Program-made: the position numbers and the translations under genes
NCBI GenBank assembly: GCA_964397465.1
Contig: CAYNIC010000002.1
Location: forward strand, 52,162 to 116,161
DNA from: an uncultured Rhodospirillales bacterium
Lineage (GTDB): Bacteria > Pseudomonadota > Alphaproteobacteria > JAWKYA01
Direction of reading: 5' to 3'
DNA length: 64,000 nt
Notes under the pieces: model-generated
Seen by the model: only the letters and a program-made list of their open reading frames with translations
Told to the model about the DNA's origin: nothing
Databases searched by the model: none
Part shown: one piece after another, positions 3,025-41,908 of the stretch
Layout: the number at the start of each line of letters is the position of its first letter
Position numbering within the stretch: the first letter of the stretch is position 1

Positions 3025-6000
3025 ATGCGTATGGCGCGCCAATTCACGAAAAAAGATCAATCGCCTTACGCAGGAATGTCTTTCCGCGAGGCACTGAGCG
3101 AGATTCGCACCCCCGACGGAGCCATCGTTTTCCGTCAGGACAAGGTGACTGTGCCCGAGACCTGGAGCCAGGTTGCGATCGATATCTTGGTGCAAAAATA
3201 CCTTAGAAAAGCAGGCGTTCCAAAGGCCCTGTGCCGGGTACCTGAAGACGGCATACCTGAATGGCTGCAACGCGCAACGGCAGATGAAGCGGCGCTGGCG
3301 GATGTGCCCGAGGCCGATCGTCTTGGCGGTGAAACCGATGCGCGCCAGGTCTTCGATCGCCTGGCCGGTACCTGGACCTATTGGGGCTGGAAGGGCGGTT
3401 ACTTCGATAGCGCTGAGGATGCCCGGGCCTATTACGATGAAATGCGGTTCATGCTGGTTCACCAGATGGCGGCGCCCAATTCACCACAATGGTTCAACAC
3501 CGGCCTTCATTGGGCCTATGGAATAGACGGTCCCTCCCAGGGCCATTGGTATACGGATTTCACCTCGGGCGCGGTGGTTGAATCCACCTCGGCCTACGTC
3601 CACCCCCAGCCTCATGCCTGCTTTATCCTGTCGGTTGCCGACGACTTGGTCGGCCAGGGCGGCATTATGGACCTGTGGCAACGCGAGGCGCGCCTGTTCA
3701 AATACGGCAGCGGCACCGGCTCCAATTTTTCTCCTTTAAGAGCGGAGGGCGAATCTCTCTCGGGCGGCGGCGTAACCTCCGGCGTCATGAGCTTTCTGAA
3801 AATCGGCGATCAAGCTGCCGGTGCGATCAAATCCGGCGGCGTGACCCGCCGTGCCGCCAAGATGGCGATTCTCGACATTGATCATCCGGACATCGAGTCT
3901 TTTATCGAGTGGAAAACCGTTGAAGAGCAAAAAGTGGCGGCCCTCGTTGCGGGATCGCGCCTTACAGAACGTCATGTAAATGCCATTTTGCAGGCCTGCC
4001 GCAGCGACGCGCCGGAAGCCCTGGCCGATGATGCCGTCCGTCTTGATCCTGAGCAGAATAAGTTTTTAGCCAAGGCGGTCCGCGCCGCACGCCGCGCTTT
4101 TTTGCCGGAGACCTTAATTCAGCGGGCCTTGCGCTTGGCCGCCGAAGGACAAACCTCGGCGCGGCTGCCTCTTTATGACACCGATTGGGATGGCGAAGCC
4201 TATCGTAGCGTCAGTGGACAAAATGCCAATAACTCCATTCGCGTTACCGAAGAGTTTTTGGTCGCCGTCGAGCGTGGTGGTGATTGGGCCTTAATCCGGC
4301 GGACCGATGGCGCCACCGCAAAAACGGTTAAGGCGCGCGCCTTATGGGATCGCATAGCCACCGCGGCCTGGACGTCGGCGGATCCTGGTGTGCAATTCGA
4401 TACCACGATTAATTCGTGGCACACCTGCCCGGAAAGCGGCCGCATCAAGGCGTCCAATCCGTGCTCTGAATATATGTTTTTGGATGATACGGCTTGTAAT
4501 TTAGCCTCGCTTAACCTGATGGCGTTTCGTCGTGACGACGGCAATTTAGATGTCGATGCCTTGCGGCATGCGATAAGACTTTGGACGGTGACGCTCGAGA
4601 TTTCGGTGCTAATGGCGCAATATCCGTCGGCGCTGATCGCGCGGCGTTCTTATGAATTTCGCACCCTCGGTCTTGGCTTCGCCAACCTGGGGGCGTTGAT
4701 CATGTCCCTGGGTCATTCTTATGACAGTGATGCCGGCCGGTCGCTTGCCGGTGCGATAACCGCATTTATGACCGGAACCGCTTATACGGTTTCTGCGGAG
4801 ATGGCGGAAGAATTAGGCGCCTTTCCGGGCTTCGCCGCCAATCGTGACGCAATGCTGCGGGTGATGCGTAATCACCAACGCGCGGCGCGAGGTGAGACGA
4901 CGGGTTATGAAGGATTGTCGGTGCCGCCCGTGCCGTTAATTCAGCATGCGCAGGTGGACCAGCGTCTGCATCAGGCAGCGGTTGCGGCATGGAACGAAGC
5001 CGTAGAGCAGGGCGCAAGCCACGGCTATCGCAATGCTCAGGTTACGGCGATCGCACCTACCGGGACTATCGGCCTGGTGATGGATTGCGACACCACCGGG
5101 ATTGAGCCCGACTTTGCCTTGGTCAAGTTTAAGAAATTAGCCGGCGGGGGATATTTCCGGATTATTAACCGTACGGTTCCCTTGGCTCTGGAGGCTTTGG
5201 GTTACGATCCGGAAACGGCCAACCACATTGTCGGTTACGCCATCGGCTACGGCACCTTGAAAGATGCACCGGGCGTGAATCACGAAAAGCTGCGGTTGCG
5301 GGGATTTGACGATGCGGCGCTCACCAAGGTGGAACGCGCCTTAGAAACAGCTTTTGATATTCGGTTTGCCTTCAACAAATGGACTCTCGGCGCCGACTTC
5401 TGCACCCGCGTGCTCAAGTTGGATGGAGATGATCTTGACGATCTCTCCTTCGACATGTTGGACGCCTTGGGATTTACCCGGGACGAGATCGACGCGGCGA
5501 ATATCCACTGCTGCGGCGCGATGACCTTGGAAGGGGCGCCGGATCTGCAGCCGAAACACTTGGCGACGTTCGACTGTGCAACCCCTTGTGGGCGAAAGGG
5601 AACACGATCTCTCTCGTGGGAAAGTCATTTGCGGATGATGGCGGCGGTTCAGCCGTTTGTTTCCGGCGCCATCTCCAAAACTGTTAACATGCCGAACACG
5701 GCATCCATCGCCGACTGCCAGAATGTTTACACCCTTGCCTGGCGATTGGGGCTGAAGTCGGTGGCTCTTTATCGCGATGGATGCAAACTATCGCAACCCT
5801 TGGCATCGGTCTTTACCGATCATGCCGACGACGCTTTCGACGAGGAAGACGCGGATATTCGGCCCAGTCTTCTCGAGCAGGTTATGGCGGCGCCGGTGCC
5901 CGAGCGGGCGGCTGTCGTTACCGAGCGGATTATCGAACGGATCGTCGAACGTGCAACGGATCGCCGGCGACTTCCCCATCGCCGCAAAGGCTATACGCAA

Positions 6001-6771
6001 AAGGCGACGGTTGGCGGTCATAAGGTTTATTTGCGAACCGGCGAATACGAAGACGGCCGGATCGGCGAAATCTTTATCGACATGCATAAAGAGGGCGCCG
6101 CCTTCCGCTCGCTGATGAATAATTTTGCCATCGCCATCTCGATTGGACTGCAATACGGCGTTCCGCTGGAAGAGTTCGTCGAGGCCTTTACCTTTACCCG
6201 GTTTGAGCCGGCGGGCCCGGTCCAGGGCAACGATGTTATCAAGATGGCCACCAGTGTTCTCGATTATATTTTCCGGGAACTGGCGATCAGTTACTTGGGG
6301 CGGACCGACTTAGCCCACGCCGAACCGGCCGATCTCCTGCCCGATGCCTTGGGTAAGAAGAACGCGCCGGCCGAGGGTCTGGATCGCCCTGCTGAGGCGG
6401 CCGAGCAACAGCTTGATACCCGAGAATTGGTTCGTCGGGTGGCCTCGACCGGCTATGTCCGGGCCAATCTTCTGGTTTTACAAGGCGGGCTTGCCGCGAC
6501 GGGGACGGAAAACCATCGGTCGATGAGTGAAGCGCAGACGGTTGCCGACGCCTTCACCCCCGACCCGGCGGCTGAAGCGGTGTTCTCGCCGTCCCCTGCC
6601 ATTGCCGAAACCGCTGTGCGGGAAGTTAACCGCCAGCTCGACCGTATCCGGGAAGCCCGGCTTAAGGGATTCGAGGGCGATCCGTGCCCGGAATGCGCCA
6701 ATTTTACCCTCCTGCGTAGCGGTACCTGTCTTAAGTGCGATAGCTGCGGAGGAACAAGCGGCTGTTCTTAA
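3025..6771 (+). CDS. nrdJ: Class II (adenosylcobalamin-dependent) ribonucleoside-diphosphate reductase NrdJ
   Basis: 1248 aa with conserved RNR class II blocks ([28 protein letters not shown]) and a C-terminal [22 protein letters not shown] zinc-ribbon tail. Confidence 0.9.
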
Positions 6772-6907
6772 GCAGCCTAACAAGTTTGCATCGGGCGTGA
6801 CCGATGCGTCTCTATGCGGCGGAACTGCCTGTTCCGCCCATACGCCGGCGGAGCGTGATGCCTGCCGCTGGTGTCTCGCCTGGCATCAGTGCTCCCTGTA
6901 TAAACTT

Positions 6908-6940
6908 GGGGGAGACCGCAAGGTCTCCCCCACTTTTTTA
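6908..6940 (+). terminator. Rho-independent terminator after nrdJ
   Basis: Perfect 10-bp stem GGGGGAGACC / GGTCTCCCCC with a GCAA loop, followed by ACTTTTTTA. Confidence 0.7.
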
Positions 6941-7018
6941 TCCAATAAAAAGGCAAAGTTTGCGGAAGAGGCAGGCTTTTTGCAGGGTTTTCTGTTAAAA
7001 TTCTCGCGAAACCTTTGC

Positions 7019-7047
7019 TTGCAGGAACAAGAGGTGATTCCTATACT
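7019..7047 (+). promoter_or_regulatory. Sigma70-like promoter candidate for dksA
   Basis: TTGCAG, a 17-nt spacer, then TATACT, about 48 nt upstream of the dksA ATG. Confidence 0.3.
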
Positions 7048-7094
7048 CCTGCGCGCAAGAGTTCAGAGTTTGCGCTCACAACCCGGCGATCACC

Positions 7095-8057
7095 ATGGCA
7101 CAGAAAAAACAGCCTTCTCCCAAGAAAAAGAAACAACCGGTGGCGAAGAAAAAACGCCCAGCCCCGATGAAGACGCCGGTAAAGAATCGCGCAAAACCGG
7201 CGGCGAAATCTCGGGGTGCTGTGAAAAAACCGGCTAAGGCGAAAACTGTTGCTAAAAAATCGGGGGCGCCCAAGTCGCGGCCGGTGACAAAATCAACGAA
7301 GTCGGCAAAGCCGGCGCCTCGCCCGGCAAAAACCGGTTCGGCCAAAAAAACACCGACGGCGAAAAAACCGCCGGCGAAGGCGGCACCCGCGAAACAAGCT
7401 GCAAAGGTTGCGCCACCCAAGACAATGCCCAAATCGTCGGCGAAGGTGTCGGGAGGGAAAACAACTCCGACAAAAGCTCCGGCTGTGAAGGCAACACCCG
7501 TTAAGGGGCCGTCCAAAGTGCCGGCTAAACCCTCTGCGGCTTCGAATAAAGGTCCGTCCCCTTTTCGTCCGACTGGCGCGGCAAAACCGGTTATCGTCAA
7601 GAAGCCGATCATTCCCCGCAAGATTCTAGGCAAGCCGGGGCCCGCGATCGTGTTGCCGCCCGATTACGAGCCTGATGAAAAAGAAGAATTCATGAATCCA
7701 CGTCAGCAGGAATTCTTTCGGCAGAAATTGTTAAAGTGGCGCGAAGATGTTTTGAAAGAGTCCGATGAGACGCTGATGGTTTTGCGCGAGGAAAGCTTGC
7801 AGGAATCGGATATGAACGACCGGGCGTCGTTGGAAACCGATCGCTCGATCGAGCTGCGGACGCGCGACCGTCAACGCAAACTCTTGTCAAAGATTGATGA
7901 CGCGTTACGCCGCATTGATGAGGGCGTTTATGGGTATTGTGAAGAAACCGGCGAGCCGATCGGATTGAAGCGGTTGACGGCACGCCCGATTGCGACCCTA
8001 AGCCTTGAAGCGCAAGAGCGCCACGAGCGGATGGAACGGACGCATCGCGAAGATTAA
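7095..8057 (+). CDS. dksA: DksA-family RNA polymerase-binding factor with a long N-terminal Lys/Ala/Pro-rich (histone H1-like) extension
   Basis: The C-terminal ~130 aa align to E. coli DksA (EFMNPRQQEFFRQKLLKWR...SIELRTRDRQRKLLSKIDDALRRIDEGVYGYCEETGEPIGLKRLTARPIATLS). Only one of the four Zn-finger Cys residues is retained. The first ~190 aa are KKPAK/AKP repeats. Confidence 0.75.
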   Translation: MAQKKQPSPKKKKQPVAKKKRPAPMKTPVKNRAKPAAKSRGAVKKPAKAKTVAKKSGAPKSRPVTKSTKSAKPAPRPAKTGSAKKTPTAKKPPAKAAPAKQAAKVAPPKTMPKSSAKVSGGKTTPTKAPAVKATPVKGPSKVPAKPSAASNKGPSPFRPTGAAKPVIVKKPIIPRKILGKPGPAIVLPPDYEPDEKEEFMNPRQQEFFRQKLLKWREDVLKESDETLMVLREESLQESDMNDRASLETDRSIELRTRDRQRKLLSKIDDALRRIDEGVYGYCEETGEPIGLKRLTARPIATLSLEAQERHERMERTHRED

Positions 8058-8135: not shown

Positions 8136-9731
8136 ATGGCGGAGAGAAAAGAGGGCCGTAATCTCGAGGATCGGTCTGATGCGCCACTCGTTCGCCGTTC
8201 TGAGCGGCGTTTCCGCGCTCTATACGACTTGGCGCCGATCGGCATCGTCTTGCTTGATGGTGAGACGAAGATTCTGCGTGGTAATAATGCGTTTCTTTCT
8301 CTTGTCGGTGATCCTAAGATTCGTCTAACCGGCCAGTCGTTGGATAGTCTGGTTTTTGAATCTGACCGAGTAGCGGTGCGGAAAATTCTTGATAACCTCT
8401 ACGATCATTCCGGCTTCGAGCGGATAGATGTTCGATTTGGCCAAGCAGGCGATAAGACGGCGACGCTTTTCATCGGAGCTGACTCAGAAGAGGATCCGTC
8501 TTCTAAGAGCGCTACGGTTTATGTGATCGATACCACCGAGCAAAAAAGCCTCGAGCAGCGTTTGGCCCAAGCTCAAAAGATGCAGGCCATCGGTCAGTTG
8601 GCGGGAGGGATTGCCCACGACTTTAATAATTTGCTGACGGCGATGATCGGTTACTGCGACCTTACCTTGTTGCGGCAAGATCAAGGGAGCGATGATTTCT
8701 CCGATATCACGCAGATCAAGCAAAACGCCGAACGTGCAGCTACTTTGGTGCGGCAATTGCTGGCTTTTTCACGACGGCAAATCCTTCAGCCGCATGTGCT
8801 GAATGTCAGGGATACTATTTCCGGCGTGACGGATTTGCTGCGTCGTCTCAGCGGTGAAGAAATCAAGATCGAGATCCAGAATACGTCCGAGCAGGGTCTG
8901 ATTTTTGCCGATGAAAGCCAACTGGAACAGATTTTGGTGAACCTGGTCGTCAACGCCCGGGATGCAATGCCGCGCGGAGGAAAGCTGTCCATTCGCACCG
9001 CCAATATGGTGTTAACTCAGCCGCTGGTTCGCGGCGGTGAGGTTGTGCCTCCCGGTAATTGGATCTCGATCGAGGTTGAGGATACGGGCGTCGGCATTCC
9101 ACCGGAAATTCTAAGCCGGATCTTTGAGCCGTTCTTTTCGACGAAGGCGATCGGGCAAGGGACCGGCCTTGGCCTGGCGACAGTCTACGGCATTGTAAAG
9201 CAAACCGGCGGGTATGTGTTTGTGGATACGGCTGTTGGCAGCGGATCGATTTTTCGGCTCCTTTTCCCTCGTCACATCGACACTCATGTGGCCAAGTCCT
9301 CGGACGGGATGAAGGCAAAGCCAACGGCAAAGCCTTCGGCCGGCGAGGTGAAAGAGGGCGAGAACCGTACGGTCCTTATTGTTGAAGACGAAGATCCGGT
9401 GCGGCTGTTTGCGGTGCGCGCCTTGCAGGCAAAAGGATACAAGGTATTTCATGCCGGCACTGGGATGGAGGCTTTGGAGATTCTCCGCCAAGAACGCGAT
9501 GCCATCGATTTGCTTATTACCGATGTGGTGATGCCCCAGATGGATGGGCCGTCGGTTATCGCCGCCGCCAGAGCCATCGTGCCGCGGATCAAAGTGCTCT
9601 GCATGTCCGGTTATGCCGAAGAGGCGCTGAAAGATCGGATTCGGGCGACTCAGGACGTCCGATTTCTCGCCAAGCCGTTTAGCCTGGCGCAATTTGCCGG
9701 TGCGGTTAAAGAGGTCTTGGCGCCGAAGTAA
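8136..9731 (+). CDS. Soluble PAS-domain hybrid sensor histidine kinase/response regulator (CckA-like HisKA and receiver)
   Basis: PAS region, then an H-box ([18 protein letters not shown]), HATPase_c (G-boxes DTGVGIP, GTGLGLA), and a C-terminal receiver domain ([11 protein letters not shown]...[14 protein letters not shown]). No TM segments. Confidence 0.8.
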
Positions 9732-9803
9732 AATTACTAACCGGGACTGGTGTTGATAAGTAAGCGGTGTTCTTGCGGCAAACCCCAGATAATCCGCCAT
9801 TTT

Positions 9804-9840
9804 GTTCATATATAGTTTTCCTATTGTTCTTTTATTGTTC
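9804..9840. promoter_or_regulatory. Two alphaproteobacterial-type LexA (SOS) boxes upstream of recA
   Basis: GTTCatatataGTTT at 9804-9818 and a perfect GTTCttttattGTTC at 9826-9840. This matches the GTTC-N7-GTTC direct-repeat consensus known for alphaproteobacterial LexA. Confidence 0.55.
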
Positions 9841-9977
9841 CTGTAGTAAAGTGTTTGGACGGTTGGAGACGGAAACCAATCGGGGAGCAAAATCTAACCT
9901 GCATCCAAGAACATAAGGTGACCATTTACCCGTATTGCGGGAGCACCAGGCTTTTTGTAAGAGGAGGATATTCGGCT

Positions 9978-11060
9978 ATGACGAATACGGCATTGCGCCT
10001 AGTGGAGAAAAACCAAATGGATAAACAAAAAGCCTTGGATGCGGCTCTCGGTCAGATCGAGCGATCCTTCGGTAAAGGCTCGATCATGAAGCTCGGCCAG
10101 CAAGAGGCGACCGAGCATGAGGCCATTTCCACAGGATCGCTGAGCCTGGACATCGCCCTAGGAATCGGCGGGTTGCCGAAAGGCCGGGTGATTGAAATTT
10201 ACGGCCCTGAATCCTCGGGTAAAACCACCTTGGCTTTGCATGTTGTTGCCGAAGCGCAGAAAAGCGGCGGGACCTGCGCCTTTATCGATGCCGAGCATGC
10301 GCTGGATCCCATTTATGCCGGCAAGCTGGGGGTTGATGTTGGGAACCTTTTGATTTCGCAGCCTGATGCAGGCGAGCAGGCGTTGGAAATCGCCGATACC
10401 TTGGTGCGGTCCGGTGCCGTCGACGTTCTGATCGTTGACTCGGTTGCGGCGCTGGTGCCGCGCGCGGAACTTGAAGGCGAAATGGGCGATAGTCATGTCG
10501 GTCTTCATGCGCGGCTGATGAGTCAGGCGCTTCGGAAGCTGACCTCGTCGATTTCCCGGTCGAACACCCTGGTTATTTTCATCAATCAAATTCGCATGAA
10601 AATCGGCGTGATGTTCGGCAGCCCCGAAACTACGACCGGCGGCAATGCGCTGAAGTTTTATGCCTCGGTTCGTTTGGATATTCGCCGGATCGGTCAAATC
10701 AAAGACCGGGAAAATGTGGTGGGCAATCAGACCAAGGTGAAGGTTGTCAAAAACAAAATGGCGCCGCCGTTTAAGGTGGTTGAATTCGACATCATGTATG
10801 GCGAAGGCGTTTCCAAAACAGGCGAGCTTGTCGACTTGGGCGTTGCAGCCGGGGTCGTCGAAAAATCCGGCGCCTGGTTTTCCTTCGATGGCCAACGGAT
10901 TGGCCAGGGGCGGGAGAACGCCAAGACTTTCTTGAAAGCCAACCCGGAAATGGCGGCGACCATCGAACAAAAAATCCGCGCCAATGCCGGACTGGTCGCC
11001 GGCCGCATGATGATGTCTTCCGGTGACGGTGAAGGATCATCCAGCTCTGACGATGACTAA
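9978..11060 (+). CDS. recA: Recombinase RecA
   Basis: 360 aa with a GAGGAGGA RBS. Walker [10 protein letters not shown] and near-identical blocks throughout. Confidence 0.95.
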
Positions 11061-11067
11061 GATTAAG

Positions 11068-11104
11068 CAGCTTTGCGAAGGCAGCAAGCCTTTCGCAAAG
11101 CTGC
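11068..11104 (+). terminator. Hairpin after recA
   Basis: GCAGCTTTGCGAAGG-cagcaag-CCTTTCGCAAAGCTGC, a 15-bp inverted repeat. There is no strong U-tract. Confidence 0.45.
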
Positions 11105-11384
11105 CGAAAATCTCTGAACGGTACCGGCTGTAACCCCTGCCTGGTAGCCCTCCTCAGAGAAAGGTCCGCCCTTGTTGCCCTTCCCCGTCCTCCGGGATCA
11201 AGCCGCAGCAGGGGCGGATTTCCTTGTAATTCCCGCTTTTTACCACATATATAAGCCTATGCCCGGGATGCGTAATTTGCGGCGCCTGCTTTTGGGCCGC
11301 TGGCGTCTGCGCGATAGACAGTCCGCAGGAGGGGCGGTACAACAAATTTCTTATGTTTTTGATTTGAGGTAACGGCAGGCGGTT

Positions 11385-14042
11385 ATGGCGAGCGGCAACG
11401 AGATCCGGTCAACCTTTATTGAATTTTTCCGCAAGAACGGTCACGAGGCCGTGGCCTCGAGCCCTCTTGTGCCGCGGAATGATCCGTCGCTGCTCTTCAC
11501 CAATTCCGGCATGGTGCAGTTCAAGAATGTCTTCACCGGCACCGAACAGCGTCCCTATCGGCGCGCGACCACGGCGCAGAAATGTGTCCGCGCCGGTGGA
11601 AAGCACAATGACTTGGAGAACGTGGGTTACACCGCCCGCCATCATACATTCTTTGAAATGCTGGGGAATTTCTCGTTCGGCGATTATTTCAAACCGGATG
11701 CGATCGAGTTTGCGTGGAGTCTCGTCACTCAGGACTACGGCCTTCCAAAATCGAAACTATGGGTGACGGTTTATAGTGAAGACGAAGAAGCCGCCGGGTT
11801 GTGGAAAAAGATCGCCGGCCTTGGGGACGATCGCATCATCCGGATTTCCACCTCCGACAATTTCTGGCAGATGGGGGATACGGGTCCCTGCGGTCCCTGT
11901 TCGGAAATTTTCTACGACCATGGTGACAAGATTCCCGGGGGTCCTCCGGGGAGTGCGGATGCCGACGGCGACCGCTTCATCGAGATCTGGAATTTGGTGT
12001 TCATGCAATATGAGCAACAGCCGGGCGGCAAACGGATTAGTTTGCCACGGCCGTCGATTGACACCGGCATGGGGCTCGAGCGGATCGCCGCCATCCTGCA
12101 GGGCAAGCACGATAATTATGATACCGATTTACTGCGCTCATTGATTGAGTCATCGGCCGAGCTGACCCGGCAGCATGCCGATGGATCTCATGCGGTCTCG
12201 CACCGGGTGATTGCCGATCATCTTCGCTCCAGTGCGTTTTTGATTGCCGATGGGGTATTGCCGTCGAACGAGGGGCGGGGATATGTCTTGCGCCGCATTA
12301 TGCGTCGCGGGATGCGCCATGCCCATAAGCTTGGAAGCTCTGAGCCGTTAATGTGGCGTTTGGTGCCGAGTCTGGTTCGCATGATGGGTGCCGCCTATCC
12401 GGAGCTGATCCGTGCCGAGGCTTTAATAACCGAGACATTGAAATTGGAGGAAACTCGGTTCCGGCAAACCTTGGAACGTGGGTTAAAATTGCTGGATGAG
12501 GAACTGACCCGTCTGCCTAAGGACAAGGCCTTGGCCGGTGATGTGGCGTTCCGGCTTTATGATACCTACGGTTTTCCCTTGGATTTAACCCAAGACATTC
12601 TCCGCGGACAAAGTCGTGCGGTTGATGTCGCCGGATTTGATGCGGCAATGGCCAAACAGCGTGCCGAGGCGCGGAAGGCCTGGGCCGGTTCGGGCGAGAC
12701 GGCGACGGAAAGTCTGTGGTTCAATCTACGCGAAAAACATGGAGCGACCGAGTTTCTGGGTTATGGAGAGATCGCTGCCGAGGGGAATGTCCTTGCTGTT
12801 ATCAAAGACGGCAAGGAAGTCGCTTCAGCCGGTGCGGGCGATCAGGTGGCGATTATCGTCAACCAGACACCCTTCTACGGCGAGTCCGGTGGACAACAAG
12901 GCGATCAAGGCAGCTTCTTTGCGCCCGGCGGTCTGGAGGTCGCCATCGAAGATACCCAGAAAAAACTGGGTGATCTTTTCATTCACATGGGCAAGGTGGT
13001 TCATGGAACGCTGAAGGCCGGCATGGCGGTAAACATGCGAATCGATGCCGAGCGCAGGGCCGGCTTGCGCGCCCATCATTCGGTTACCCATCTTCTGCAT
13101 GAAGCTTTGCGCCGCCGTCTGGGCGATCACGTGACGCAAAAAGGTTCGCTGGTCGCCGCCGATAGATTGCGGTTCGATTTTTCTCAAGTACGTCCGCTAA
13201 CGGCAGAAGATATTGCTGCCGTTGAGGCGGATGTGAATGCGCGCATTCTTCTAAATGCCGACGTCACCACCCGGCTGATGACACCGGAGGCGGCGGTTGC
13301 CGCCGGCGCTTTGGCGTTGTTCGGCGAGAAGTATGGCGACGAGGTGCGGGTTGTTTCCATGGGCGGCGCTCATGAAAAAAAGAACAATGCTTTTTATTCG
13401 ACCGAACTATGCGGGGGAACTCATGTGACCCGCACCGGCGACATCGGTCTATTCCGCATCATATCGGAAGAAGGCCTTGCTGCCGGGGTGCGCCGAATCG
13501 AAGCGGTGGCAGGGAAGGCAGCGATCGAGTGGACCAAGACGCAGTCCGCCTTGCTGGCCGAGGTGGCGGCAATCATTAAGGCCTCGCCTCAAGACGTGCC
13601 TAGCCGCATCACCGCCTTGCTCGACGAGCGAAAAAAACTGGAGCGGGATCTGGCCGACCTTCGGCGCAAGCTGGCAACCGGCGGCGGTGGAAATGGTGCT
13701 GCCCCGGAAATCCGCACCATCGGCAAGATCAAATATATCGGCCGCGCCTTATCGGAAGTCCCGCCGCGCGAACTAAAGGCGATGGCGGATGACCTCAAGC
13801 GTAAGCTGGGCAGCGGCGGGGTTGTCGCTCTGGCCACCACCACCGAAGGCAAGGCGTCGCTGGTTGTCGGGGTTACCGACGATCTCACGCCCGGCGTCAG
13901 TGCGGTCGAACTCGTCCGGGTCGGCGCCGAGACCTTGGGCGGCAAGGGCGGCGGCGGACGCCCCGATATGGCGCAAGCCGGCGGTCCCAATGTCGCTAAG
14001 ATTGATGCGGCCCTTGAAGCAATCGCCGGCGCTTTGAATTAG
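11385..14042 (+). CDS. alaS: Alanine--tRNA ligase
   Basis: 885 aa. N-terminal class II aaRS motifs ([21 protein letters not shown]), editing domain, and a C-terminal DHHA1-like region. Confidence 0.95.
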
Positions 14043-32991: not shown

Positions 32992-34353
32992 TTAAGGAAT
33001 GAGGGGCGACCAAGCCGGATCAGAGGCTTCGAGCGGCGTTACGATTTCCCGCAAGTTCTGCCCGGAAAGGTCGATGCTGTAGAGTTTAGTGGTGCCTGAA
33101 ACGCTTTGTCCGCCTTGGGTTTGCCGGAAAAACATCAAGACGCGGCCGTTGGGCGACCAGGTCGGGCCTTCATCTAAAAAGCTTTCGGTCAGGAGGCGCT
33201 CCTTGCTGCCGTCGGGTTTCATGACGCCAATATAAAATTTACCACCTTGCATCTTGGTAAAGGCGATCAAGTCGCCGCGAGGCGACCAAACCGGGGTCGC
33301 ATAGCGGCCTTGGCCAAAACTGATTCGCTGAACATTCGAGCCGTCGGCGTTCATGACATAAAGCTGCTGAGCCCCGCCGCGATCAGAGTTAAACACGATC
33401 TGGGCATTGGTATCCGAATAGGACGGCGAGGTATCGATCGCGGGATGGTTGGTCAATTGCTGAACCCGCCGTGTCTGCAGATCCATGGCGTAGATTTCAG
33501 AATTGCCGTCATTGGACATGCTGAGGACGATTTTCTTGCCGTCATTTGAGAACCGGGGGGCAAAGGTCATGCCGGGGAATTCACCAACGACTTCGCGCTG
33601 ACCGCTATCGATGTTGAACAGATAGACCCGCGGCTTATCCGCAAAGTAAGACAAATAGGTGATTTCCTGGGTCGACGGCGAGAACCGGGGGGTCAATACC
33701 AGGGAAGACCCGTCGGTTAAGAACTTATGATTGGCGCCATCTTGATCCATGATGGCCAAGCGCTTGATGCGGCGGTTACCGGGGCCGCTTTCCGCCACGT
33801 AAACGATACGCGTATCGAAGTAGCCCTTTTCGCCCGTGACCCGCTCGTAGATCGCATCGGAGATGATATGGGCGATGCGCCGCCAGTTCTGCGGCACCGT
33901 ATAGTACTTACGGCCAGCCATGGGCTGGCCTTGGAAAATATCCCACAGACGGAATTCAACCCGTAATCGGCCGTCGGGCTCCATCGCGGCGACCCCTGAA
34001 ACCAGGGCTTGGGCGTTGATGGTTTTCCAATCCTGAAAGCGCGGTTGGGCTTGGGCCAAATCAGCCGGCGATTGCAGAAAAGCCCGTGGATCGACGGCGC
34101 GGAACAGGCCTGATCTTTCTAAGTCGGCGCTGACGACGGCGGCAATTTGCTTGCCGTAATTCGAGGCATCAGCGGCGCCGCCGAAAAAGTCGGTGATGGC
34201 GATCTGAATGGGATTGGGAACGGGACTTTCGATATCTACGCGGACTTCAGCCCGGGCAGAAGTGAAGATGACGGCGCTGGAAAACAATCCAATAACGGCG
34301 GCAAGAGCAAGCTTGCTGCCAACGAGAGGTAGCCGATATCGCGTGAACATCAT
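32992..34353 (-). CDS. tolB: Tol-Pal system beta-propeller protein TolB
   Basis: 453 aa. A signal peptide, a TolB N-terminal domain, and WD-like propeller repeats. Confidence 0.9.
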
Positions 34354-35270
34354 TACATACAGTCCGCTTCTTTAGGGGTGAAGGCGACGATAAACCGGTC
34401 AAATTGAGCGTATTTATCTTTGGGGATAGGCAAGGGGCTGGCTTGATTAACGGCACGAATCGCACTGTCAACAAAGGCTGTCAGGGCGACATTATCGCCC
34501 GATCCAACCGCACGCTCGACCTTCACCGAGGTGACAGTTCCATCGGGCAAAACTTGAACCGCCAACTCTGCCGCCATTTGGGAAAAACCCTTAAGGCCGC
34601 AGTTGGCATTCCATTTTTCTTTGATGACTTGGCGCAAGGCGTCCAACTCGCTGCCCGACAGGGTTGGGCCAAGCGGCGCGATGGCGGCGGTGCGGGTCGC
34701 CGGCTCCGGCTGCGGTTTCGCCGCAGGATCGATCGGGGTATTCATCGCCGTTTGTTTGGACTTTGGATCAACTTGGGGGGTTGGTTGTTGCGGCTTGGTC
34801 TTCAAACGGTTTTGCAGAAAGTTTTCGATATCGGCAAAGTCGTCCTTCTTCTGATCCTTTTTAGGCTCGGGCTTTTTCGCATCTTGCTTGGGTTGATCCT
34901 TGGGCTTGGGCGGTTGCGCCGGCAAAGCCATTTTCTCAGGCACGGGATCTGGTTTTGGCGGTAAAGGTTCAGGCTTAGGCGGGGCGACAGCGACCTTCGG
35001 CTCCGGCGGTGGCGGCGGTGCCGCCTCGGCAGGGGCTGGTGCGGGAGCCGGCGGGGGTGGCGGGACGGGCTGAGCCTCCGCCTTAGGCGGTTCCGGTTTC
35101 GGCGGCGGCGGCGCGACCTCGGGGGTCTGCGAGACGGGACCGATTTCAACCAAGCTGACAGCGATAGTCGGTTGCGGCTCGATCTCGGGACGCAGATGTG
35201 GCAACCCGACCACCGCAAGGACAAGAAGCGTGGCGTGTAGGGCGCTGGAGGCAACCAGAGCTTTACGCAT
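34353..35270 (-). CDS. tolA: Cell envelope integrity protein TolA
   Basis: An N-terminal TM helix, a long Pro/Ala/Lys/Glu-rich domain II, and a C-terminal TolA III-like domain. It sits in the position between tolR and tolB. Confidence 0.7.
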
Positions 35271-41747: not shown

Positions 41748-41908
41748 AAAGAGTGCCGCGCCAGCCGTTGACCGTTTCTATCCACTTGGGCCTGCCATAG
41801 CAGGTGGGCGCCATGTACCAAAGCCAAGGCTCTGGCAGGGACAGCTCCCATAGTGTGGAAATTGGCCCCAGGGAATGAGTGGTCTGACGTACTGGGCAGC
41901 ACCAAGAC
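41748..41908 (-). ncRNA. ssrS: Candidate 6S RNA (SsrS)
   Basis: A 174-nt non-coding gap in the conserved zapA-ssrS-ygfA position. In the minus-strand transcript the 5' GUGCUGCC can pair with the 3' GGCGCGGCAC to form a closing stem, as expected for 6S. No ORF. Confidence 0.45.

Follow-up and report, generated by a model that had tools for sequence, protein, structure and literature searches.

A housekeeping DksA of an uncultured Rhodospirillales bacterium with a long polycationic N-terminal tail, probably a non-specific polyanion tether

DksA is usually viewed as a small, freely diffusing protein of constant level, whose action is set by guanosine tetraphosphate (ppGpp) and by competition for the secondary channel in RNA polymerase (RNAP). 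Here we analyse a dksA gene found in a stretch of 64,000 nucleotides (henceforth the window) from an uncultured Rhodospirillales bacterium (Alphaproteobacteria, JAWKYA01; GenBank assembly GCA_964397465.1, contig CAYNIC010000002.1, positions 52,162 to 116,161 of the forward strand), in which the DksA core is preceded, in the same open reading frame (ORF), by a long tail rich in lysine, alanine and proline (K/A/P). In our opinion it is reasonably probable that this gene is the resident housekeeping dksA in its alphaproteobacterial one-Cys form, that it is translated from the ATG at position 7095 as a single 320-aa protein, and that the tail tethers this protein to a polyanion, most probably DNA.

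The closest described system is DdbA (SCO2075) of Streptomyces coelicolor, whose histone H1-like N-terminal domain binds DNA in electrophoretic mobility shift assays and condenses it, while the DksA-like domain does not (Aldridge et al. 2013, PMC3643593). Full-length DdbA is needed for the suppression of relA phenotypes; its authors found orthologues only in streptomycetes and considered the N-terminal domain to be streptomycete-specific (PMC3643593). An H1-like domain has been also found on the RNAP-interacting module of Anaeromyxobacter CarD (PMC2919716), and the K/P/A-rich tails of AlgP and PhaF bind DNA, that of AlgP localising to polyphosphate (polyP) granules (PMC9239181). As regards the core, the DksA of Rhodobacter sphaeroides (RSP2654) retains only the Cys equivalent to C114, Thr occupying position 117 and Ala position 138; this protein binds to the secondary channel and synergises with ppGpp (Lennon et al. 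2014, PMC4010833). DksA2 is described as a Zn-starvation paralogue that coexists with DksA1 (PMC9213440). Among open-access papers and bioRxiv preprints we found no literature on a tail in an alphaproteobacterial DksA, and the tailed form is apparently undescribed. The design itself is not categorically new; the one-Cys finger is ordinary and the tail has a precedent in DdbA.

The original prediction, made from the same DNA, had proposed a DksA fused to a long basic tail in one uninterrupted frame, and both parts of this proposal are correct: the ORF has no internal stop from ATG 7095 through the core, and domain matches together with composition confirm the fusion, with a tail of 184 residues. 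By base composition alone, the chance probability of 184 open codons 5' of the core is ~8e-4. Four of the five other frames carry stops across the tail region, and the remaining one, on the minus strand, is also open. The core matches the Pfam families DksA_N (PF21157, residues 204-274, E 5.7e-26, 91 bits against a threshold of 27) and zf-dskA_traR (PF01258, residues 278-312, E 5.2e-10, 39.6 bits against a threshold of 24.9), and it reaches 143.9 bits with the NCBIfam equivalog model TIGR02420 (dksA; residues 200-309, cutoff 115.5). Judged from its sequence, it is a bona fide DksA and belongs to the Zn-free type of Alphaproteobacteria. The alignment to E. coli DksA (1TJL) needs no gaps, at an offset of +168, with R259, K262 and K266 falling on R91, K94 and K98, which like the tip are of known importance in E. 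coli; the columns of these three residues and of the coiled-coil tip are invariant in an alignment of 25 sequences. AlphaFold2 models the core with a predicted local distance difference test score (pLDDT) of mostly 82-91, decreasing to 69-76 at the coiled-coil tip and to ~60 in the last ~20 residues. A phmmer search of PDB sequences retrieved Pseudomonas aeruginosa DksA2 (4IJJ, 4.5e-25) and E. coli DksA (1TJL, 1.4e-23), and a Foldseek search with the predicted model also placed DksA2 4IJJ at the top (TM 0.74, 47% identity), followed by E. coli DksA 1TJL and by the RNAP-bound DksA structures 5VSW and 7KHI.

In place of the canonical Cys4 finger of the E. coli type, the corresponding segment reads C282-E-E-T285 ... 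S303-L-E-A306. The expectation that a single one of the four cysteines would be kept was borne out, as was the assignment to the Zn-independent finger type, since among solved structures P. aeruginosa DksA2 (4IJJ) is the best relative in sequence as well as in fold. On the other hand, the description of this finger as a degenerate peculiarity did not survive. The string CEETGEPIG..ATLS.EAQERHE is near-invariant among the retrieved homologues, and a single Cys is the standard alphaproteobacterial state, found also in the R. sphaeroides protein, which is active with ppGpp (PMC4010833). By analogy, the single-Cys finger can be regarded as ordinary for Alphaproteobacteria and not as functionally degenerate, because the one-Cys DksA of R. 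sphaeroides binds the secondary channel and acts in synergy with ppGpp. RSP2654 resembles the window core in being an alphaproteobacterial DksA with a DxxDxA tip and a single C114-equivalent Cys, but it is only 158 aa long, lacks a polycationic tail and has Thr as the third substitution, where the window protein has Ser303. P. aeruginosa DksA2 shares with the window core the Zn-independent globular domain (CxxT...xxA) and provides the nearest solved structure, but it has two cysteines left and is not extended at the N-terminus. We considered whether the window gene might be a Zn-starvation paralogue of the DksA2 type, which retains two cysteines (CxxT...CxxA) and is a second, Zur-controlled copy next to a Cys4 DksA, and ruled this out: it encodes one Cys, it lies at a housekeeping locus, and no second DksA/TraR gene occurs within the 64-kb window.

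The tail (residues 1-184) comprises 46 K, 7 R, 34 P and 33 A and no D or E, i.e. 53 basic residues (29% K+R) and a charge of +53, with an isoelectric point (pI) of 12.0, as opposed to a pI of 4.9 and a net charge of about -9 in the core. AlphaFold2 finds no secondary structure in residues 1 to ~184 (pLDDT ~50). Runs of KKKK and KKK are present, but the KKPAK/AKPA/TPxK array that had been proposed turned out to be a compositional bias: there are one SPKK, three TPxK and one KPAA, and Tandem Repeats Finder reports a single 15-bp x 2.1 repeat and nothing else. Membership in the AlgP/PhaF class of KPAA-repeat domains was rejected on the same two grounds, the single KPAA and the single short repeat. 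The tails of AlgP, PhaF, Hc1, Hc2 and CarD resemble that of the window protein in being Lys/Ala/Pro-rich, disordered, polyanion-binding appendages on a folded module, but they are C-terminal whereas the window tail is N-terminal, and in AlgP and PhaF they consist of KPAA units in regular tandem, a regularity that the window tail lacks.

DdbA comes closer, with a basic H1-like N-terminal region followed, in the same order, by a C-terminal DksA-type domain with two tip aspartates, and it is the best functional analogue. It is, however, an actinobacterial DksA-like paralogue with a Cys4 finger, a 93-aa N-terminal domain built of five S/T-A/T-A-K-K pentapeptides and a locus near ftsZ, whereas the window encodes a genuine proteobacterial DksA (TIGR02420) that has one Cys and a 184-aa, proline-rich, non-repetitive tail, at an alphaproteobacterial dksA locus. 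A count of motifs found no [ST][AT]AKK pentapeptide in the window tail. The window protein is not a DdbA orthologue as judged by published features rather than by alignment, and the resemblance is most likely convergent, because the Cys4 finger, the pentapeptides, the phylum and the locus all differ. The two proteins have the architecture in common and, probably, its logic.

That the tail is translated is argued by two metagenomic orthologues with available DNA (loci L081 and L083, proteins P0002 and P0003), which were compared with the window in a three-way DNA alignment. Over the true ORF, the tails of L081 and L083 are 80% and 48% identical to that of the window, and the cores 100% and 94%. 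The start, ATGGCACA(G/A)AA at ATG 7095, is conserved in both. All indels within the tail are multiples of three, as opposed to indels of 1, 2 and 14 nt on the 5' side of the ATG, and between the window and L081 the tail exhibits 0.59 synonymous (dS) and 0.108 nonsynonymous (dN) substitutions per site, with dN/dS of 0.18 (core dN 0). The composition of the tail is under selection, because each of the three tails has 25% Lys and no more than 0-1 acidic residues in spite of the 48% identity to L083. Taken at the codon level, these comparisons indicate purifying selection that keeps a disordered polycation in frame and free of acidic residues. The segment that joins the tail to the core, FRP..KKPIIPRKILGKPGPAIVLPPDY, is better conserved than the rest and nearly identical in P0002 and P0003.

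These data also decide against a tail that is mostly untranslated, with an internal start at the Met of FMNPRQQ (the possibility raised originally), at the GTG of codon 43 or at Met25, and a frame left open by chance or compositional bias. Such a reading could appeal to the lack of a Shine-Dalgarno motif before ATG 7095, to the complementary strand, which is likewise open across the tail, and to disagreement among gene callers: JGI starts the protein at GTG 7221 (codon 43; P0001, 278 aa), and one cluster of homologues at 90% contains both 145-aa and 249-aa versions. Nevertheless, ATG 7095 is the only start conserved in all three orthologues, Met25 being Ile and codon 43 being GTT in L081, and no start codon is conserved where the tail-less homologues begin. 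A start at Met200 (FMNPRQQ) would cut out the LPPDYxPxxxE segment that all tail-less homologues keep, and a conserved promoter-like element sits upstream of the tail. Together with the whole-codon indels and the dN/dS value, these observations led us to reject an internal start as extremely improbable. The same region (window 6527-7237) attracts other doubtful calls: JGI predicts an ORF of 146 aa that spans the intergenic region and is spurious, and the Logan start of P0002 (L081 2435) lies 73 codons too early, reading through the terminator of the preceding ribonucleotide reductase (RNR) gene. With start calls so inconsistent, database entries often show the tail cut short or spuriously lengthened, and the lengths recorded for the family are unreliable.

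Tails of this kind are common. A full-length search returned 5298 homologues; the first 120 almost all measure 180-392 aa and combine an N-terminal extension rich in K/A/P with the one-Cys finger seen here. As the tail itself biases this ranking, an unbiased estimate was obtained by searching 1.84 billion cluster representatives with the core only: among the 126 classifiable representatives, 28 have clear K/A/P tails, 53 have canonical short N-termini and 45 are extended in other ways, mostly by what seem to be over-called starts. In the best 80 GTDB species loci, most alphaproteobacterial DksAs start 16 residues before the FMN motif (M-x-V-T-L-P-P-D-Y...), and tails were found at 8 of about 73 loci, four in Hyphomicrobium/Hyphomicrobiaceae and four in uncultured lineages (the taxonomy was taken from the titles of GTDB loci). 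One such protein, of 253 aa and from Hyphomicrobium sp. ghe19, is annotated by NCBI as 'RNA polymerase-binding transcription factor DksA'. Altogether, 127 of the 268 retrieved homologues carry basic K/A/P tails, with a median length of 112 aa (range 48-254) and median fractions of 26% basic and 2.4% acidic residues. The architecture had been called unusual, which is overstated in view of these numbers and of the same design in Streptomyces DdbA; the tail recurs in many Alphaproteobacteria, and the majority of alphaproteobacterial DksAs lack it.

In a neighbor-joining tree of the core (136 residues, calculated with no support values), the tail-bearing proteins form at least seven clades, with tail-less ones scattered between them, and the window clade adjoins tail-less sequences of Kiloniellales, Dongia and Reyranella. 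The tails either arose repeatedly, or arose once and were lost many times. A junction motif, P-[KR]-K-hydrophobic-x2-[RK]-x-K-x3-[IV]VLPPDY, recurs in several tail-bearing clades whose tails are otherwise unalignable (homologues P0004-P0084); its partial conservation hints that some of the tails share ancestry, and it could be either a functional linear motif or a trace of the tails' common origin. The gene order in the window is class II RNR, dksA, a PAS-HisKA-REC hybrid kinase, recA and alaS. The dksA gene has been elaborated in place and is not an acquired paralogue, because the dksA-kinase-recA block occurs also beside tail-less dksA genes, e.g. in L059.

How might such a protein work? The core would insert its coiled coil into the secondary channel of RNAP and act together with ppGpp, as in R. 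sphaeroides. In the structures of E. coli DksA bound to RNAP (5VSW, 7KHI) the secondary channel takes up the coiled coil, while the globular domain rests against the beta' rim helices on the outside. Extending the N-terminus should be sterically compatible with RNAP binding, because the N-terminus emerges from the globular domain outside the channel; the tail would leave the complex there and should not block it. Its 184 disordered residues would be long enough to reach nearby DNA. From its composition and by analogy, the tail would bind polyanions non-specifically, most probably duplex DNA, and such binding would raise the local concentration of DksA on the nucleoid or close to transcribing RNAP, and might aid the compaction of DNA, as does the N-terminal domain of DdbA. 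Non-specific tethering of a secondary-channel factor to a polyanion (DNA) is thus the most likely function of the tail, as suggested by these analogies.

Several observations weigh against this interpretation. Of the basic residues with which E. coli DksA contacts ppGpp at site 2 (R91, K94, K98 and K139), the first three are kept here but K139 is replaced by Q307, and the whole clade has Q at this position (motif EAQERHE). ATG 7095 is not preceded by a Shine-Dalgarno motif, and neither is the corresponding start in L083. From the sequence alone a minor short isoform made from an internal start could be imagined, with nothing to support one. The closest Rhodospirillales-type DksAs, like most alphaproteobacterial DksAs, are tail-less, and therefore the tail is not needed for the core function of DksA. 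Searched alone, the tail has no Pfam match even at E<=10 and no PDB sequence match, and it shows neither detectable homology to H1, Hc1 or AlgP nor their regular repeats. In NCBIfam it gave only a low-complexity pseudo-match to DNA polymerase III tau (E 0.28). The likeness to the tails of H1, AlgP and Hc1 that had been proposed is therefore real in composition and absent at the level of sequence homology, and we call the tail H1-like in composition only. Membership in the linker histone H1/H5 family was rejected, as residues 1-184 show no winged-helix domain (PF00538).

Other roles of a translated tail have to be compared with DNA tethering. Its ligand may be polyP or RNA instead of DNA, in which case it would direct DksA during starvation either to polyP granules or into RNA-rich or RNAP condensates and link polyP to ppGpp signalling. 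The composition is like that of polyP-associated proteins, with the K/P/A tail of AlgP on polyP granules (PMC9239181) as an example; Lys-rich stretches with K runs bind polyP (PMC12077175), and the window tail has such runs; and DksA has been linked to the accumulation of polyP in E. coli (Gray 2019, as cited in later papers). The sequence discriminates none of DNA, RNA and polyP, but DdbA, the sole experimentally studied protein that combines DksA with a basic tail, binds DNA, and no polyP genes adjoin dksA here, which makes this a possible but minor alternative to tethering on DNA.

It is quite unlikely, in our view, that the tail is a regulatory appendage. In that case the +53 tail would fold onto the acidic core and autoinhibit RNAP binding until a polyanion competes for it, or it would serve as a degron, e.g. 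for Lon, which degrades basic proteins when stimulated by polyP. The charge asymmetry between tail and core is indeed extreme, and E. coli DksA without residues 1-18 is reportedly more active, so the N-terminus can modulate function (PMC4010833). This idea is purely inferential, though: the AlphaFold2 model has no confident contact between tail and core, and lengths that vary from 48 to 254 aa between clades are easier to reconcile with a generic binder of polyanions than with a specific switch within the molecule. A nearly neutral low-complexity expansion, tolerated because the N-terminus of DksA lies outside the secondary channel, would account for the fast evolution and frequent indels of the tail (48% identity against 94% in the core), for its patchy distribution, with tail-less closest relatives by core, and for the lack of a regular repeat or a known domain. 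It is very unlikely all the same, since dN/dS is well below 1, the Lys and acidic contents are held in all three orthologues, the median acidic fraction is so low over 127 tails, the junction motif is conserved and the tail is found in many separate clades.

The features of the locus are collected in Table 1. The terminator-like hairpin is kept in L081 and L083 and forms the 5' boundary of the dksA unit. Downstream of it, the hexamers of the element at 7019..7047 are surrounded by a spacer and flanks that diverge, with indels that are not multiples of three, which makes it a putative promoter. The predicted transcription start near 7054 would give a 5' untranslated region of ~40 nt. This element was found by the alignment of orthologues, as the consensus promoter scan missed it (the -35 hexamer agrees at 3/6 positions only).

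Table 1. Features of the dksA locus (window coordinates)
Feature	Position	Strand	Description
Intrinsic-terminator-like hairpin followed by a T-run	6907..6932	+	11-bp stem with 8 G-C pairs (terminator scan); closes the class II ribonucleotide reductase gene
Promoter-like element TTGCAG-N17-TATACT (putative)	7019..7047	+	both hexamers identical in the window, L081 and L083
dksA coding sequence	7095..8057	+	320 aa, 35.1 kDa, whole-protein pI 10.45
N-terminal tail, residues 1-184	7095..7646	+	K 25%, P 18.5%, A 17.9%; predicted disordered
Junction segment, residues ~155-191	7557..7667	+	better conserved; joins the tail to the DksA core
DksA core, residues 185-320	7647..8054	+	helices 202-236 and 243-276, globular region, C-terminal helix 304-319
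Coiled-coil tip DxxDxA (D239-M-N-D242-R-A244)	7809..7826	+	equivalent to E. coli D71, D74 and A76
Zn-finger-equivalent segment (C282, T285, S303, A306)	7938..8012	+	one Cys of the canonical four

The class II (B12-dependent) RNR upstream is a 1248-aa protein (3025-6771, +) that contains a TSCPD domain and ends in a Cys-rich tail (CPEC...), which may correspond to the zinc-finger tail of class II RNRs named in the title of PMC5704485. On the other side, the order of dksA, the PAS-HisKA-HATPase-REC hybrid histidine kinase, recA and alaS (8136-14042, +) is partly conserved across Alphaproteobacteria (L058, L059, L040, L062), next to tail-less and tail-bearing dksA genes alike. The RecA of the window is 81-85% identical to those of Azospirillum, Nitrospirillum, Novispirillum, Rhodocista and Stellaceae, which places the bacterium near Rhodospirillales, and a 397-kb JGI metagenome contig matches the window. 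No Rfam family reaches its gathering score in or near the 5' region of dksA; the sole match in the window is a 6S RNA (SsrS) gene at 41749-41905 on the minus strand (RF00013, 79.5 bits where the gathering score is 46.4, full-length coverage of the model), i.e. another RNAP-binding global regulator within the same window as dksA. There is only one other K/A/P-rich stretch, a Pro/Lys-rich segment at 34833-34991 within the gene 34353-35270 (-), which encodes a TolA/TonB-like protein (TonB_2 C-terminal domain, E 5e-5) directly upstream of tolB; this is a Pro/Glu/Lys spacer with acidic residues, and in this it differs in kind from the tail of DksA. As regards codon usage, the check for AAA bias showed a use of AAA for tail Lys (59% vs 52% genome-wide) that is not unusual. 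The Ala codon GCC is near-absent from dksA (7095-8054, +; 2/33 Ala codons in the tail and 0/5 in the core), as compared with 577/1191 Ala codons in 18 other genes of the window, while the use of AAA and AAG for Lys in dksA is normal.

A broader proposition, which we advance as unlikely in its full form, is that in a sizeable number of Alphaproteobacteria DksA, a cofactor of the stringent response, has repeatedly become associated with the nucleoid or with polyP, and that the tail gates or localises its activity, either by electrostatic autoinhibition of the acidic core, relieved by DNA or polyP, or by recruitment to polyanion condensates, so that the state of cellular polyanions, and not only ppGpp, would control the availability of DksA. 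A housekeeping DksA with a polycation of 50-250 residues would be bound to DNA or other polyanions, with a changed effective concentration at RNAP, and the state of the nucleoid or of polyP could be coupled to how rRNA and stress genes are transcribed. That genuine proteobacterial DksAs share this solution with DdbA, and apparently do so in several clades independently, suggests that its selective advantage is a general one.

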